Origin: Candidatus Levyibacteriota bacterium
GTDB lineage: Bacteria; Patescibacteriota; Microgenomatia; Levybacterales; UBA12049
Reading direction: 5' to 3'
NCBI GenBank assembly: GCA_052034235.1
Contig: JBPOIT010000011.1
Span: forward strand, 37,756-101,755
DNA length: 64,000 nucleotides
Shown: positions 5,870 through 10,841 of the stretch, in pieces
Layout of the letters: every line of letters begins with the position of its first letter
Numbering within the stretch: the stretch's first letter is position 1
Translations under genes and position numbers: made by a program
Notes under the pieces: generated by a model
The model's database searches: none
The model's input: only the letters and a program-made list of their open reading frames with translations
Told to the model about the DNA's origin: nothing

Positions 5870-6973
5870 TTATGTTCCTATTTTAAACTCAATAACATCC
5901 CCATCTTTGACAACATAATCCCGGCCTTCCATGCGGGCTTTGCCGAGTTCTCTGGCTTTTTTGCGGCCGCCGAGTGAGATGTAGTCTTCAAATGAGACAA
6001 CTTCTGCTTTGATGAATTTTTTGATGAAATCTGTGTGGATTGCTCCAGCTGCATGTTGTGCATCCAAATCTTTCTCAATTGTCCATGCCTTCACTTCCTT
6101 CTCCCCTGCTGTAAGGAAAGAAATAAGTCCAAGTGTGGTGTAAGCCTTTTGAATAAGTCGCTCAAGTCCTGATGCTTTCAGTCCCAAATCAGCCAAATAT
6201 TCAACAGCCTCTTCATCTGAAAGTGCAGCGAGTTCTGATTCGATCTTGGCGCAAATGACAACAAGTTTTTCTTCTGGTTGATTCAATGTCGCCGCAAATT
6301 TCTTGGTTACTTCAGCAATCCCTTCAGTGTTATATTGATCTTCTGACACATTAAGGACGATGATTTCAGGTTTTGCAGAAAGTAAGAATAAATCAGCAGT
6401 CAATTCTTTTTCTTCTTCAGTCAAAGCAATATCCCGAGCGGCAGTCCCGCTGTTCAGTCCTTTATACAATTTCTCAACCGCCACCTTTTTCTTCGCATCA
6501 GTCTTCACAGCCTTTGACTCACGGGATTTCATAACAGTCGAAAGATCAGCAATGATAAGCTCCGTCACAATGGTCTCATAATCAGATTTCGGATCCACAG
6601 CCCCCTCTTTCACAATATCTTCATCTTCAAACCCCCGCACAACATGCGCCACAATCTTCACTTCCCGAATATGAGACAAAAACTTATTGCCAAGACCCGC
6701 CCCTTCAGACGCACCCTTGACGAGCCCAGCGATATCAACAAACTCAATAATCGCAGGTTTTACAGGAGGCAAGCCACCCATCTTTTCCTCTTCTTTCGTA
6801 GCTTCTGCAAGTTGCGTAAGCCGTGCATCCGGCACAGGAACCGCCCCCACATTGGGTTCAATAGTAGCAAAAGGATAATTAGCCGCCAAAGCCTGCTGTT
6901 TCTTCAAAAGAGCATTAAACAAAGTAGATTTCCCAACATTAGGAAGCCCAACAATTCCAACAGATAGATTCAT
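5870..6973 (-). CDS. ychF: Ribosome-binding ATPase YchF (Obg-family GTPase)
   Basis: [23 protein letters not shown]-loop at the N-terminus, as in E. coli YchF. It has a C-terminal TGS-like end ([16 protein letters not shown]). The ORF track gives a longer ORF (to 7033); I prefer the conserved start (M at 6973). An alternative ATG is at 6982. Confidence 0.92.
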
Positions 6974-7295
6974 AAAGGTCATTATACCAAGAAGCCAGAA
7001 GAAACGAAACAAAGAGAAGGTGCAAGCACACACAGACTTTATGCGACAGTAATGCTATTACATACTAAGTTTATTGTAAGAAGTTTAGAGTAGCTTATGT
7101 GTCGGGGTCATCTGGTTCTGACTTTTGGCAGACTTTCTTGAGCTAATTTTCTATCTGTCAAAATACCCATTGATGACCAAACTTTGGATTCCCCACCTCT
7201 GCAAGTATGCCACTGGTGATCTCCTCCAAGAACATCTATTTGCATCTAAAGAAGCAAATTGAGCCATGGCTGCTTTTATATATCGTTGCTAAGTA

Positions 7296-8651
7296 TCACA
7301 CTTGTGCGGCTTGATCTTTTTTTAAATTCCTTACCCTGGCTTGCTGAATTAACAGAACTCCCTCGTGAGGCACATCCGGCCTTGTTCCCTCAAATCCTTT
7401 TCCTTCCTGAAGTAATGGGAAATGTTTATTTTTCGCTAAGAATTCGAGAAGGCTGCCCCATGGGGCTTCTTTAACAGCATCTTTGCCAGTTTGACTTGTA
7501 TAGGCAATCTCTTCAGGATGAGCATGATGTTCTTTCTGCCCACCAACTTCATCCAGCGTTAACCAACTAAGTAATTTACCAGGTAATCCTGAATGAACAG
7601 TGTCTGTTGTCACTGAACCATCTTCTTCATTCAAATGGATATCATATTTTGTTCTCAGTGCAGCCTGAACTAATCTATTTTGATCAAAAACGCCTGCATG
7701 CCCCATAGAGTTTGTAACATTGCCCCCCACAAGCTCCAGACCTACACGAGCAGCATTTATTGCTGCACCAGTTATTACTGCTTCAGCGACACTCTTCCTA
7801 TCAAACTTTCTTCTCGTAAAAAGCACTGCTGCCGCAGGAATAGCAAAACCTGCAATAACATCACGAGCATGTGTACTTGTATTCTTACCATCAGGATGTT
7901 GCAAATCATCTGGTTTTCTTTCCGGATGATCAGTAAATAGTGCAGCTGCACGTTGATATAAACCGATATTTTTTAAAGCGATTCTCTTTACTCCATTTTC
8001 TCCTCCAGTCAGTACCGGAGAATGCGGATCTGTGAGAAGTATTTGTGCCATATCTTCAGTTGTCCATTCTCCTTTATGATGTTTATAATCGGGGTAAACA
8101 TAACGCGGGCTATGAGGATTTAATATTTCTCTGACTTCATCCGCAGTATAATCAGTTTTTTCCTGGTACACATCTCCTAATTTTTCTTTAATATGGTCTT
8201 TAGCTAAATTTCCTATTGTAACAACTTCATCAAGAGAAAATTCTGGTACAAAGGGGTCAAGATGAGGAAAAGCCTCGGGAACTTCTACTGTTCCGACATT
8301 TTCCGGACGCTGCGCCCACTCTATTGCTCCAGCCATTTGGAAAAAAGGAAAGAGTGAAGCGTCAGTCATTTCATGGTGGATTCTGTGAACAGATGCCCAT
8401 ATCGTTGGATCGCCAACTCCAAGTGAGCTTTGCTCTGCTTTAATAAGTGCCGAGACAACTGGATGAGGCTCCAAACTTCGGTGGGTTAAGTTTCGATGAT
8501 GCTCGATTGTAATTCCTGCAACGCCAATAAACCCTGCTGCCGCTCCTCCACCAATAATTTTCGCTGCTCTGCGCAAACCTTTATGCTTTCCATCTTCTGT
8601 GGAAGCTATTCTCTGTTCTTTTGACATATGATCATTTATTATAATGTACAA
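7296..8651 (-). CDS. Acyl-CoA delta-9 desaturase-like di-iron His-box protein, atypical (long insertions, few TM segments)
   Basis: His boxes HRNLTHRS (HxxxxH) and HRIHH (HxxHH) are 38 aa apart, as in stearoyl-CoA desaturases. NSMGHAGVFD resembles the conserved NSAAHxxG, followed by EHHAHP resembling HNNHHAFP. Alternative start at M9 (8627). GC looks higher than in neighbouring genes. Confidence 0.65.
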   Translation of the reverse strand: MYIIINDHMSKEQRIASTEDGKHKGLRRAAKIIGGGAAAGFIGVAGITIEHHRNLTHRSLEPHPVVSALIKAEQSSLGVGDPTIWASVHRIHHEMTDASLFPFFQMAGAIEWAQRPENVGTVEVPEAFPHLDPFVPEFSLDEVVTIGNLAKDHIKEKLGDVYQEKTDYTADEVREILNPHSPRYVYPDYKHHKGEWTTEDMAQILLTDPHSPVLTGGENGVKRIALKNIGLYQRAAALFTDHPERKPDDLQHPDGKNTSTHARDVIAGFAIPAAAVLFTRRKFDRKSVAEAVITGAAINAARVGLELVGGNVTNSMGHAGVFDQNRLVQAALRTKYDIHLNEEDGSVTTDTVHSGLPGKLLSWLTLDEVGGQKEHHAHPEEIAYTSQTGKDAVKEAPWGSLLEFLAKNKHFPLLQEGKGFEGTRPDVPHEGVLLIQQARVRNLKKDQAAQV

Positions 8652-8715
8652 AAGAGCTTAGTCAAGCTGATAAATAAAGTATAACCACACATGCTTTGAA
8701 ATTTCTAGAGCTTTA

Positions 8716-8758
8716 GTAATTCTAAAACCTTATAAACAACAACTGCTGGCCAGAATAT
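8716..8758. repeat. 43-bp perfect direct repeat, copy 1 (gtaattctaaaaccttataaacaacaactgctggccagaatat). A remnant copy of the 3' end of the small membrane-protein gene
   Basis: Identical to 10079-10121. The flanking ~15 bp are also similar (gaaattt...). On the minus strand it encodes ...IFWPAVVVYKVLELLKL* but is preceded by an in-frame stop, so it is non-coding here. Confidence 0.85.
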
Positions 8759-9092
8759 AATCGACACGCTCAGATTGGCAGATACTCAGGCTTTACCAAA
8801 TTTCCTAACATTTGTAACAGTTAAAGAAGCGCGTTTGAAGATTCAAGCATAACTGAAGAATCACCTACTCGATACGAAGCTTCACCATTCTTTCCGGTAA
8901 ATTCTCTTACCATCTCTACGAGTGTGCCTATTTCTACTTGCTTTTCTTGCATAAACTGCGATTATAACTGCATACTCATCCATAATCAAACAAAGCGCCG
9001 CTTATATTATGCTTTCGACGATTTTCTTATGACAATAGAATCAAAAAGTAGAGGTAATTGTTAATTTATATCTTATAGTATATAATCGTGAG

Positions 9093-10019
9093 ATGACCGA
9101 ACGTTCAGAGGGATTATCTCCGGCAAATGCAGAAACACAAGAATTGACACGAGAGCAATATAATTATCTTTCGAAACAAGCATATTATTTTTTTCCTTTT
9201 TTGAGGAAGTACTATGCCATCTTGAGTCGTTCTAGTGCTGAAGATGAACAGTTTCAGGCGGAAAGCATGCAGCGCATGAAGGATATCGTTTTATATTACG
9301 GTGGTGCTTTTGCACTTGGAGAATTTGCTATTGACCGGGAACAGAGTCTTATTGATAAGTTAAATGGAACCATTCAGAAAAGATATACCGAAGATGAACT
9401 CTATAATAAGTTTTTGATCGTTGGAGAAAATACGGTTGCGAAATCTGACGGAGAAACGGCTGATTATATATATGGCACTATACCATGTAGAGATTTAGTT
9501 AATATAGATCTTCCTGGAGCACCTTTTTATTCCTTAGGATTGTCAGGAGGCATTATAGAAAACAGTGGCAATCGTCGCAAAAATTCTGTCCTCAATGCTT
9601 TAACAAGTTACATCTCTGAACACCATGCAGATCAACCAGTAGCAGTTTGGGGTAATGTCGCTCGCGGATCAATAGAGGCTGCAGCAATCCATAAAAAATT
9701 TGAACAAGCAGGTATTGACTCTTCCTTTCATCTTTTTAGGGCTTCTTCAAAAGCATTTAATGATCGCGAAGCATTTTCAATTGCAGAACCGACTTCTCTT
9801 ACGAATTCATGGAACATTGCTGTTGATACTATGTCAGCAGGTGGAAATAGTGTTCCAATGATGCGATCCTTTTTACAATCCTTAGGTTCCAATCGATCAT
9901 CAGTTTATTTAACTCATGGTGGACGCTTTTGGAATAAGGAAATGCCTGTAGAATTTAAATCTCCAGAATATGAGCGCTTTGGAATGGGAATTCTTTTAGA
10001 AGCAAAACCAGTTCGGTAG
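9093..10019 (+). CDS. Hypothetical protein (308 aa), the orphan cargo ORF between the direct repeats
   Basis: Long ORF with a TATAAT-like element (tatagtatataat) just upstream. No motif recognised. Confidence 0.55.
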   Translation: MTERSEGLSPANAETQELTREQYNYLSKQAYYFFPFLRKYYAILSRSSAEDEQFQAESMQRMKDIVLYYGGAFALGEFAIDREQSLIDKLNGTIQKRYTEDELYNKFLIVGENTVAKSDGETADYIYGTIPCRDLVNIDLPGAPFYSLGLSGGIIENSGNRRKNSVLNALTSYISEHHADQPVAVWGNVARGSIEAAAIHKKFEQAGIDSSFHLFRASSKAFNDREAFSIAEPTSLTNSWNIAVDTMSAGGNSVPMMRSFLQSLGSNRSSVYLTHGGRFWNKEMPVEFKSPEYERFGMGILLEAKPVR

Positions 10020-10067
10020 TAAGCGTGTTTCAACTCGCAAATTATAAATTCTTAAAGCCTAGGAAAT

Positions 10068-10256
10068 TTAAAGTTTGAGTAATTCTAAAACCTTATAAAC
10101 AACAACTGCTGGCCAGAATATGGCCATTATGATACCAATTAGGCCGTCTAGAAATGATGTGGAGGTCTGTAAAAAGTATACAAGCGCTCCAATAACACCC
10201 AAGCCGTAAAGCCCTCCTGTTCCCGCGTTACATTTCATGTTACTCACCCCCTTCAC
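10068..10256 (-). CDS. Small Gly-zipper membrane protein (62 aa), the putative integration target
   Basis: MKGVSNMKCNAGTGGLYGLGVIGALVYFLQ...IFWPAVVVYKVLELLKL has two predicted TM helices. Its 3' end is duplicated as the direct repeat. Confidence 0.5.
   Translation of the reverse strand: MKGVSNMKCNAGTGGLYGLGVIGALVYFLQTSTSFLDGLIGIIMAIFWPAVVVYKVLELLKL
10079..10121. repeat. 43-bp perfect direct repeat, copy 2. Forms the last 14 codons of the small membrane-protein gene
   Basis: Identical to 8716-8758. On the minus strand it encodes IFWPAVVVYKVLEL of ORF 10068..10256. Confidence 0.85.
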
Positions 10257-10351
10257 ACCACTATTCTATACCTGTATATTTACCCACACAATGATCTATC
10301 TCACGATATTATTAATTTTCCATACATTAAGGCTATGGTATAATCTATCTA

Positions 10352-10531
10352 ATGAAAGAACATCCATCAGTAGCAGAACGAAGTAATGGTCGCTTTGCTG
10401 GAATGTTCTTGGTATTTCGACGCAGAAAACCAGAACCTCAAAAATCACGACTAGATTATCATCAACTCCAAGATACTGTTGCTCGTACCGTATTGTCTAT
10501 CGGCCTCCAGCAAAACTCACGTAAACGATAG
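10352..10531 (+). CDS. Small basic hypothetical protein (59 aa)
   Basis: ATG at 10352 is preceded by ggtataat (a -10-like element 8 nt upstream, possibly leaderless). Translation MKEHPSVAERSNGRFAGMFLVFRRRKPEPQKSRLDYHQLQDTVARTVLSIGLQQNSRKR. Below the 60-aa cut-off of the ORF track. Confidence 0.3.
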   Translation: MKEHPSVAERSNGRFAGMFLVFRRRKPEPQKSRLDYHQLQDTVARTVLSIGLQQNSRKR

Positions 10532-10560
10532 TCTCAAATTTTTCGATATACTATACTGCA

Positions 10561-10803
10561 ATGAAGATTTCTGTTATCGTCCATCCAAATGCAAAACAGC
10601 CTAGGGTTGAAAAAGATCTATTGGAAGTGCTGCATGTATATGTATCTCAACCTCCTCTTGAAGGGAAAGCAAATGCAGCAGTTATAAACACCTTGGCTGA
10701 GCATTTAAAGGTAAAACGAAATCAAATACTTCTCATTTCTGGTGAAAAAACAAAATATAAAGTGTTTCAAATTAACTCTGCATTCTTGACAAATTCTTCA
10801 TAA
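10561..10803 (+). CDS. DUF167 (YggU-like, UPF0235) family protein
   Basis: 80 aa. ISVIVHPNAKQPRVEKD...LHVYVSQPPLEGKANAAVINTLAEHLKV matches the DUF167 pattern (V.V.P.A...; PP.EGKAN..L...LA). Confidence 0.75.
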   Translation: MKISVIVHPNAKQPRVEKDLLEVLHVYVSQPPLEGKANAAVINTLAEHLKVKRNQILLISGEKTKYKVFQINSAFLTNSS

Positions 10804-10841
10804 AAAGAGACTATAAATAGAGAAGATAAATATACACACCT

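Follow-up and report, generated by a model that had tools for sequence, protein, structure and literature searches.

Integrating elements that enter the 3′ end of a gene and supply a replacement gene end are exemplified by prophage e14 and phage 21, which use icd, and by ICEs and IMEs in fda, guaA, and similar genes. CIMEs are recombinase-less derivatives of integrative elements and are cis-mobilizable (PMC5704250). In addition, homology-facilitated illegitimate recombination, or gene-end displacement, has been proposed for T6SS effector-immunity arrays and for Rhs/CDI orphan modules (PMC5361080). Here, we analyzed a locus of a Candidatus Levyibacteriota bacterium within a 64-kb stretch of DNA, the whole of which is called the window. 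As observed, a 1,363-bp unit sits within the final 18 codons of a gene for a 56-aa membrane protein and contains a 43-codon ORF, back-to-back promoters, a gene for a 308-aa protein (the cargo), and a second end of the small gene (17 codons plus the stop codon). The original prediction was site-specific integration into a gene 3′ end with regeneration of that end. The footprint of such an insertion is present, in that both copies encode the same gene end with synonymous tails, but a site-specific mobile cassette bounded by attL and attR is unproven, as no recombinase was found in the window and no second copy or strain-level empty site was encountered.

The unit is delimited by a perfect direct repeat of 44 bp at positions 8715–8758 and 10078–10121, with a spacing of 1,363 bp. 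The identical copies had been described as 43 bp long; they are real, but base 8715 is, like base 10078, an A, which adds 1 bp to the block. Similarly, a mismatched extension of about 15 bp had been proposed, and the similarity does continue, but by BLAST for ~18 nt beyond the perfect block, to approximately 8698 and 10063, giving ~62 nt overall. BLAST aligned the two copies in 61 columns, with one gap of 2 nt and 91.8% identity, and a repeat search scored the pair as 53 nt with 94% identity and a spacing of 1363. The 43-mer occurred exactly twice in the 64 kb with up to three mismatches permitted, whereas matches were obtained in 0 of 100 shuffled sequences. It does not form a dispersed repeat family in the window, where the pair was the sole long near-perfect direct repeat, and no further partial copy, as a third att site or accretion would leave, was detected. 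These results confirmed that the direct repeat is real and not due to chance. The right perfect copy encodes I-F-W-P-A-V-V-V-Y-K-V-L-E-L plus 2 nt, and the left one is a non-coding remnant, whose frame is closed by a TGA at 8786–8788; this stop is the 10th codon upstream, not the 8th as first described.

The target gene, which encodes a small conserved membrane protein (10068–10238, minus strand; 56 aa from the ATG at 10238), is intact as judged from its ORF and sequence. Right-copy sequence had been assigned to the 3′ end of an ORF spanning 10068–10256, and it is indeed the gene end, but the start codon is most likely the ATG at 10238 and less likely the GTG at 10256, because an RBS-like AAGGGGGTGA lies upstream of the former and 56 aa is the usual length of the family. 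Homologues of the small gene formed 90 clusters, mostly of 56 aa, with the highly conserved C-terminus FWPAVxxYKVLELLK. The last 17 codons and the stop of the gene lie within the right repeat plus its extension, and codon-by-codon comparison on the minus strand showed that both copies read ...IFWPAVVVYKVLELLKL-stop and encode the same 17 residues and stop, ending in ...ELLKL-stop. Only the last three codons differ, all by synonymous third-position changes. The right tail (10063–10077, minus strand; context GAATTACTCAAACTTTAAATTTCC) reads CTC AAA CTT TAA followed by ATTTC, and now ends the functional gene. The left tail (8698–8714, minus strand) reads CTA AAG CTC TAG followed by AAATTTC, such that it departs from the right one by three synonymous changes and by 2 additional nt; the stop region thereby differs by a 2-nt indel (TAA-ATTTC versus TAGAAATTTC). 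Third-position differences were thus found in 3 of 3 tail codons and in none of the 14 complete core codons, and we calculated that random placement among 17 codons would put all three differing codons in the tail with a chance of ~1 in 680. The closest homologue (L008) differs from the 44-nt core at 7 of 44 nt, indicating that the core is unconstrained at the DNA level and that the perfect block reflects a recombination event or a later conversion, not conservation. Identity over 44 nt followed by synonymous divergence indicates two independently evolved ends of the small gene, not a simple target-site duplication. As the copies differ only synonymously and by the 2-nt indel, one is taken to be a foreign surrogate end, that is, the incoming tail on the right, and the other the displaced resident end, retained on the left (8698–8758) as an orphan closed by the in-frame stop upstream.

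Similarity to the small gene ends abruptly at 8758/8759, where the left non-coding part of the insert (8759–9092) begins. This part carries the back-to-back promoters, and the promoter-like sequence proposed for the segment was found as one promoter each for the cargo gene and the 43-codon ORF. The cargo gene (9093–10019, plus strand) has a −35 TTGTTA from 9058 and a −10 TATAAT ending at 9086, 6 nt ahead of its ATG. The divergent ORF of 43 codons (8821–8952, minus strand) has a promoter-like site at 8989–8961, with the −10 ending 8 nt before the ATG; gene callers predicted the ORF on every contig, in agreement with its earlier description, and its product had no family match in Pfam, PADLOC, PHROG, or NCBIfam. 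The region 8500–10500 contained no Rfam match and the window no tRNA gene, and a riboswitch, ncRNA, or tRNA as the insertion target was therefore rejected. A foreign composition of the cargo gene was also rejected, as its GC3 (0.26 versus 0.31 ± 0.04 for the host), GC content, and codon use were unremarkable and within the host range.

The cargo protein had been called an orphan, but ~20 distant relatives with 30–59% identity were found. A structure predicted with an alignment consists of a helical N-terminal domain and a C-terminal domain with a type I phosphoribosyltransferase fold, so that the predicted fold is that of a phosphoribosyltransferase and not of a recombinase. The closest fold is that of the type I enzymes HPRT, PyrR, and OPRT, from which the cargo differs by its extra 150-residue helical N-terminal domain, by the lack of a Pfam Pribosyltran match, and by an identity of only ~10% to solved phosphoribosyltransferases; no other Pfam or NCBIfam match was obtained either. 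The family conserves IAVD(S/T)xxAGGxSV, which is similar to a PRPP loop but contains only one acidic residue. Elsewhere, the cargo family is an ordinary chromosomal gene: the homologue in L023 follows pyrF-pyrE-pyrC, that in L072 follows the end of a dihydroorotase-like gene (by our reading of the translation), and that in Roizmanbacteria lies between SOD/YtxH genes and groEL. None of these loci had flanking repeats. Two of the cargo's closest family members adjoin pyrimidine-biosynthesis genes.

When the insert and the window ORFs of 150 aa or longer were searched against Pfam, no domain of an integrase, resolvase, or transposase was revealed. It was thereby borne out that the segment lacks a recombinase, and no candidate for a recombinase acting in trans was present among those ORFs. 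Terminal inverted repeats were not found at the ends of the insert, and no relatives of the cargo were found in PADLOC, PHROG, NCBIfam, or phage, plasmid, or viral contigs; a phage or plasmid origin was rejected for want of a PHROG, phage, or plasmid match, and a defence-island reading for want of a PADLOC match. No second copy of the element turned up, and the cargo protein itself was found only in this context. Furthermore, a degenerate-codon scan for the gene end gave 0 matches in viral contigs and, in JGI metagenomes, a duplicated 3′ end in 0 of 44 loci carrying the small gene. There was no sign that the inserted piece is able to move by itself.

The surroundings of the insert are variable. 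On its left, as described before, the left repeat copy adjoins a desaturase-like gene (7296–8665, minus strand; 443 aa from the ATG at 8627), which has its own promoter (TTGACT-16-TATAAT, 8665–8638) and whose 443-aa product was also called on the strain contigs. Beyond it, the variable interval is bounded at its far end by the conserved ychF GTPase gene (5870–6973, minus strand). The order small gene to ychF was seen in L053, L058, and L029, with an interval of 441 bp in L053, a distant relative in which ychF directly follows the small gene, a Fic cassette in L058, and ~4.6 kb in L029; the Fic cassette is bracketed by 64-nt repeats of 83% identity. A scan of GTDB genomes with the desaturase-like protein yielded one relative (L005), the nearest genome, in which the gene order differs, the desaturase-like gene lies on the opposite side of ychF, and the small gene is missing from that place. 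A second, independent strain-level indel was observed at 7029–7073, where 45 bp is replaced by ~2.5 kb with three genes in L002, L013, and L073; this indel of co-occurring strains lies 1.6 kb from the insert and has no flanking repeats. We read this small-gene-to-ychF interval as a hotspot of gene turnover in the lineage. Since the interval varies between strains and lineages while its bounding genes are conserved, routes through host recombination are at least as plausible as an integrase.

Among strains, the insert was present in all contigs spanning the site, and the empty site expected in related genomes was not encountered at strain level by exact-protein look-ups with the cargo, the desaturase-like protein, the 59-aa neighbour, and a ychF variant; every contig that these returned was either occupied or interrupted at the repeat. 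Logan contigs (k = 31) all break at the repeat and cannot tell occupied from empty sites. One of them (L004) closes on itself (1393 = 1363 + 30); it was rejected as a circular form, because a 44-nt repeat, being longer than k = 31, yields the same graph cycle from the occupied site alone. In the sample of L004, the right-flank contig begins only at 10244, indicating low coverage. SNPs among four sequences (0 in the cargo gene and 5–6 in the desaturase-like gene) were too few to date the insertion.

Our leading explanation, held with somewhat less than even confidence, is a Campbell-type or homology-anchored insertion by host recombination at the hotspot, which is now fixed. Before the event, the desaturase-like gene would have lain directly downstream of the small gene. 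The donor would have been a relative of similar composition whose cargo gene stood tail-to-tail to a homologue of the small gene, and the anchor common to incoming and resident DNA comprises ~62 nt, namely, the 44-nt perfect block plus the diverged tail. A crossover inside the block of perfect identity would have joined the incoming DNA to the chromosome, either through Campbell-type integration of a circularised fragment or through the homologous anchor combined with a single illegitimate joint at 8758/8759, and the host homologous-recombination machinery would be preferred over a dedicated integrase for this step. The copy at 10063–10121 beside the cargo now completes the small gene, and 8698–8758 is a dead remnant before the desaturase-like gene; because the incoming DNA carried its own copy of the gene end, the small gene stayed intact. 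Now fixed, the segment is probably immobile, but looping-out via the 44-nt repeats could still occur, leaving a gene for the same protein. Against the host-recombination view, 44 nt is short for RecA-type crossovers. The donor arrangement, with the cargo tail-to-tail to a small-gene homologue, was not present at L023, L071, L072, or L024–26, which is a very thin sampling.

By a slight margin, host recombination seems likelier than a trans-acting integrase, which would make the segment a tiny, non-autonomous, CIME-like element with retained att sites and an integrase that was lost or never there; a tyrosine or serine recombinase encoded elsewhere would have recombined its attP, containing a surrogate gene end, with the 3′ end of the small gene. 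This is possible but, on balance, unlikely. The 44-nt perfect repeats stand exactly at the insert boundaries, the surrogate tail differs synonymously only, and the insertion falls in the most strongly conserved part of a gene with a wide distribution, all of which fit such an element, and CIMEs are already a described class (PMC5704250). Two further observations favor it and at the same time count against host recombination: identity is perfect at the junction and decays outward, as in an attP borne by an integrase element, and the identity block stops exactly at the border of the 7-nt spacer in a 5-7-5 dyad, TGGCC-AGAATAT-GGCCA (10110–10126, reconstructed attB), which resembles a recombinase core. 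However, the reconstructed attP side (…AGAATAT|AATCG…) is without the second dyad arm. The self-closing Logan contig would also suit this explanation, yet it is expected from an occupied site at k = 31. Moreover, neither the element nor the screened 64 kb contains a recombinase; no second copy, empty site, or relative in viral contigs, phages, or plasmids was found; the gene end is duplicated at none of the 44 other loci with the small gene; and, outside this locus, members of the cargo family are ordinary chromosomal genes.

Less probable still is that the left copy is the remnant of a paralogue, such that tandem small genes once flanked the cargo, the left one was deleted down to its last ~60 nt, and conversion made 44 nt identical. 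Tandem full-length duplicates do exist in L049 and internally deleted copies in L043, and the divergence of the tail appears older than that of the core. Nevertheless, at least three events (duplication, deletion, and conversion) would be needed instead of one, the gene body has left no trace, in whatever frame, beyond 8759, and the intermediate state was seen in no relative. Conversion between 60-nt homeologous patches is inefficient, which also counts against a paralogue. Equally improbable, in our estimate, is that the segment is one member of a class of mini-cassettes, so far undescribed, that lack a recombinase and occur in uncultured bacteria with small genomes. Such cassettes would each comprise one or two genes with their own leaderless-type promoters and a 45–65-nt copy of the sequence adjoining the landing site, and would pass from strain to strain, looping out and integrating again at the hotspot between the small gene and ychF, with the Fic cassette of L058 as a second, older example.

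A transposition or staggered-cut insertion, in which the repeats would be a long target-site duplication of host sequence, is very improbable. It would account for perfect direct repeats right at the boundaries, but beyond the perfect block the homology persists for 18 nt that contain synonymous differences and an indel, unlike a fresh duplication, and this diverged tail effectively refutes the target-site-duplication reading. Neither terminal inverted repeats nor a transposase was found, and, to our knowledge, the target-site duplications of known transposons are far shorter than 44 bp, which likewise counts against transposition. An assembly artefact, in which strain variants were chimerically joined at the shared 44-mer, can be dismissed almost entirely, because, although the Logan contigs, with their short k of 31, are all interrupted at the repeat, the window and three ENA assemblies made independently from different samples (L001, L002, and L003) cross both copies in the same order.

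The insert offers a clean, datable case of a single accessory gene entering the small genome of an uncultured bacterium while leaving the landing gene undisrupted, and it identifies the stretch from the small gene to ychF as a hotspot where genes turn over in the lineage. Furthermore, a rare, unannotated family of ~20 members now becomes assignable, on its predicted structure, to the phosphoribosyltransferase fold. If reads showed ongoing excision, the locus would serve as a minimal model of gene shuttling that is independent of an integrase or mobilised in trans; otherwise, the insert is a genuine insertion scar, though a fairly ordinary one.

Compared with the known systems, the locus shares features with each. 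Like the integrative elements of gene 3′ ends, the insert is bounded by direct repeats with perfect identity at the junction, and a synonymously diverged end keeps the target intact; like a CIME, it is without an internal recombinase. In contrast to both, a cognate integrase was not seen in the 64 kb, neither a parent ICE, IME, or prophage nor another copy was found, an empty site and signs of excision were lacking, and the unit is only 1.36 kb long with a metabolic-type cargo. The small-gene end was also no recurrent integration site in the 44 other loci, unlike the targets of integrative elements. The displacement proposed for T6SS, Rhs, and CDI modules is similar in its conserved coding anchor, in a resident fragment pushed downstream as an orphan, in needing no dedicated recombinase, and in its strain-variable locus. 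It differs in that the anchor here is ~60 nt at a gene 3′ end instead of a long conserved 5′ region, and in that, unlike in those arrays, a single displacement is observed here.

The 1.36-kb segment entered a small membrane-protein gene through one insertion event, the arriving DNA bringing its own gene end, and the junctions coincide with the two limits of a 44-nt block of identity. The direct repeat formed by this block was found where the original prediction had put it, and its copies were identical as claimed, but sequence reading and BLAST of the strain contigs gave a perfect repeat of 44 bp instead of 43 bp (8715-8758 = 10078-10121), with a spacing of 1,363 bp. The 43-mer occurred twice in the 64 kb, with no further copy at up to three mismatches, and 0 of 100 shuffled sequences gave a match. 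Among the direct repeats of the window, this pair was the sole long near-perfect one; the other families were 60-76% identical, one of them sitting in two histidine-kinase genes. BLAST further showed that similarity beyond the block reached leftwards to approximately 8698/10063 (91.8% over 61 columns, with a 2-nt gap). To the right, similarity ended abruptly (8758/8759 versus 10121/10122).

The small gene (minus strand, 10068..10238) likely starts at the ATG at 10238, preceded by AAGGGGGTGA, giving 56 aa, the usual length in its family (at least 90 clusters), in which the C-terminus FWPAVxxYKVLELLK is almost invariant. The right copy reads ATA TTC TGG CCA GCA GTT GTT GTT TAT AAG GTT TTA GAA TTA CT, then C AAA CTT TAA, and the left copy has the identical 44 nt, then A AAG CTC TAG; these codon readings indicated that both copies encode ...IFWPAVVVYKVLELLKL-stop. 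The third position differed in 3/3 tail codons versus 0/14 complete core codons, a split expected about once in 680 by our own calculation if differences were placed randomly. In the stop region and the following bases, the copies were also separated by a 2-nt indel (TAGAAATTTC versus TAAATTTC). The closest homologue (locus L008; 93% protein and 82% DNA identity) differed at 7 of the 44 core positions, so constraint at the DNA level does not keep the core constant. From this contrast between core and tail and from the unconstrained core, we conclude that the two copies are independently evolved ends of one gene, and that the 44-nt identity is a record of the recombination itself or of later conversion. 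Target-site duplication of host DNA was thus excluded by the tail differences (3/3 codons plus the 2-nt indel). The copy that adjoins the desaturase-like gene with its promoter (8665-8638) is the displaced resident end, and the one adjoining the cargo gene is the incoming end.

Other forms of the small gene were also observed. One metagenomic contig (L049:406-1005) carried two complete tandem copies, 559 bp apart, and another (L043, around 2137) carried the gene with an in-frame internal deletion, MKNN-KAIFWPGVMLYKVLELLKM. Across 7315-10813, the window and strain contig L001 differed at only 3 positions (10232, 10239, 10243), grouped where the small gene begins; among them are Cys3->Ser and two changes immediately before its ATG.

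Within the insert, 8759-9092 is described as non-coding DNA with back-to-back promoter-like sites, and two ORFs diverge. The leftward 43-codon ORF (8952-8821), which had been proposed as a possible micro-ORF, was called by gene callers on all contigs, and it had no family match in Pfam, PADLOC, PHROG or NCBIfam. The rightward cargo ORF (9093-10019) encodes a 308-aa phosphoribosyltransferase-fold protein, and 6 nt separate its -10 box from the ATG. No terminal inverted repeats were present at the insert ends, the insert had no Rfam match, and its composition and codon use were not unusual. For the cargo gene (9058-9095), the 43-codon ORF (8989-8950) and the desaturase-like gene (8665-8625), the promoter-like -10 boxes end only 6-10 nt short of the ATG, which suggests that this organism commonly makes leaderless or near-leaderless transcripts.

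The 308-aa protein had been called an orphan, which agreed with a word-indexed search returning only itself, but an exhaustive HMMER search gave approximately 20 relatives. A profile search identified one of these as a hypothetical protein encoded by a Candidatus Roizmanbacteria genome. Elsewhere, the family occupies ordinary contexts. In Roizmanbacteria, the gene lies between SOD/YtxH genes and groEL/ES. In locus L023, the family member lies downstream of pyrF-pyrE-pyrC, and in L072 downstream of an apparent dihydroorotase gene end, as read from the translation; L071 and L072 share alike ends of the genes downstream of the homologue. No flanking repeats were found at any of these loci, and the cargo had no relatives among phages, plasmids, PHROG or PADLOC. 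The closest partial relative (L071, Logan SRR22387889; 59% identity) contains stops or a frameshift mid-gene, reflecting either a pseudogene or a low-coverage error. Two family members, P0100 and P0105 (546 and 558 aa), carry an extra N-terminal domain of ~230 aa with the motif VGGHEG...VVM.DP and no Pfam match.

Comparison with related strains for an empty site returned only occupied ones: three independent ENA assemblies (L001-L003; 99.2-99.8% identical) all contained the insert with its two repeats. Among the ENA and Logan contigs, no empty site was seen at the strain level; the Logan contigs (k = 31) end at the repeat, as expected with a 44-nt repeat. One Logan contig (L004, SRR10932012) equals window 8715-10107 (1,393 nt = 1363 + 30, or k-1) and closes on itself. 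This is compatible with an excised circle, but we rejected it as evidence since a k=31 graph of the occupied site gives an equal cycle. The right-flank contig of the same sample begins only at 10244.

The order small gene to ychF (GTPase gene, 5870..6973, minus strand) was kept across more distant lineages, and the content between them varied. The interval holds nothing but a 441-bp spacer in L053:6628-8334, a 58-aa ORF and a Fic-domain gene in L058, and ~4.6 kb with seven ORFs, including PNPOx-like, MFS, OmdA/DUF1801 and DUF998 genes, in L029:2572-8446. In the window, it holds the cargo insert and the desaturase-like gene. In the nearest GTDB genome (L005; ychF 82% identical), the desaturase-like gene lies on the other side of ychF and the small gene is absent there. 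Between ychF and the desaturase-like gene, co-occurring strains (L002, 1-2600; L013; L073) have ~2.5 kb where the window has 45 bp (7029-7073). This replacement carries three genes (187, 252 and 210 aa) that matched nothing in Pfam records, PADLOC or NCBIfam, apart from a single marginal PHROG match, and it has no flanking direct repeats; the adjacent 7074-7230 is only 78% identical between strain types. The variable content in relatives and this strain replacement make the interval a gene-turnover hotspot.

Desaturase models match only residues 33-94 of the desaturase-like protein (7296-8627, minus strand; Pfam E 0.011, NCBIfam DesA family 2e-6), in which three His-box-like motifs (HRNLTH, HRIHH, HHAH) were seen by eye. 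In strain L002, a 1-nt deletion (window position 7723) splits the gene, and its product has a ~100-aa N-terminal extension in L005:9734-11377. The L005 record (OZ246394.1) is labelled 'uncultured Gammaproteobacteria bacterium', a label that may be wrong; small-gene and cargo-gene homologues are labelled Daviesbacteria and Roizmanbacteria, which are candidate-phyla-radiation groups. In L058:2068-3168 (JGI Ga0180012_1001097), the 58-aa ORF and Fic gene are bracketed by ~64-nt direct repeats (G-rich, 83% identical, 1,020 bp apart) with no other copy in the fetched loci and no Rfam match. These repeats may be the trace of another, older insertion, or a regulatory leader that was duplicated. It seems improbable that recombinase-less mini-cassettes form a class of their own that shuttles at this hotspot, with the Fic cassette as its second member.

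As to mechanism, we tentatively favor insertion mediated by host recombination. The observed geometry is what results when a circular molecule joins the chromosome by one Campbell-type crossover; a homologous anchor combined with one illegitimate joint gives it as well. The 44-nt repeats could still mediate loop-out, leaving the gene with its old tail and an identical protein. The comparison with a site-specific recombinase (integrase) acting in trans, which we consider slightly less likely, depends on several points. The identity is perfect at the junction with synonymous drift farther off, as an integrase would leave it, and the reconstructed empty site, i.e., the uninterrupted gene, holds a dyad, TGGCC-AGAATAT-GGCCA (10110-10126, codons A-I-F-W-P), with the block ending exactly at the last base of its 7-nt spacer (10121). 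The dyad may represent a core-like site for a recombinase, or the coding sequence may form it by coincidence; in L008, one arm reads TGGCAA. However, the attP-side sequence is without the dyad's second arm, the cargo is ordinary, no second copy of the element was found, and the hotspot contains other indels of different kinds. As originally predicted, no integrase, resolvase or transposase domain was detected in the insert, and the search for enzymes acting in trans likewise found none in any ORF of 150 aa or longer in the 64-kb window, which contains no tRNA gene. Nor was the site used recurrently: a degenerate-codon search for the conserved small-gene end gave no matches in viral contigs and 44 loci in JGI metagenomes, of which 0/44 had a duplicated 3' end. 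A paralogue remnant with conversion is improbable, and other or artefactual explanations make up the remainder. Of the earlier interpretation, the insertion with gene-end regeneration is supported, and the site-specific attL/attR cassette is unproven and slightly disfavored.

A surrogate gene end is likewise brought in by integrative elements whose target is the 3' end of a protein gene, and the closest among them are the recombinase-less CIMEs (cis-mobilizable elements), a described class (PMC5704250). The insert differs from such att-flanked elements in that the screen of the window gave no cognate recombinase and that no recurrence was seen. Its footprint also resembles the homology-facilitated gene-end displacement at hotspots that has been put forward for orphan arrays of T6SS and Rhs (PMC5361080), although no donor locus was found for the insert. 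The insert adds one more case to a type of event that is already known.
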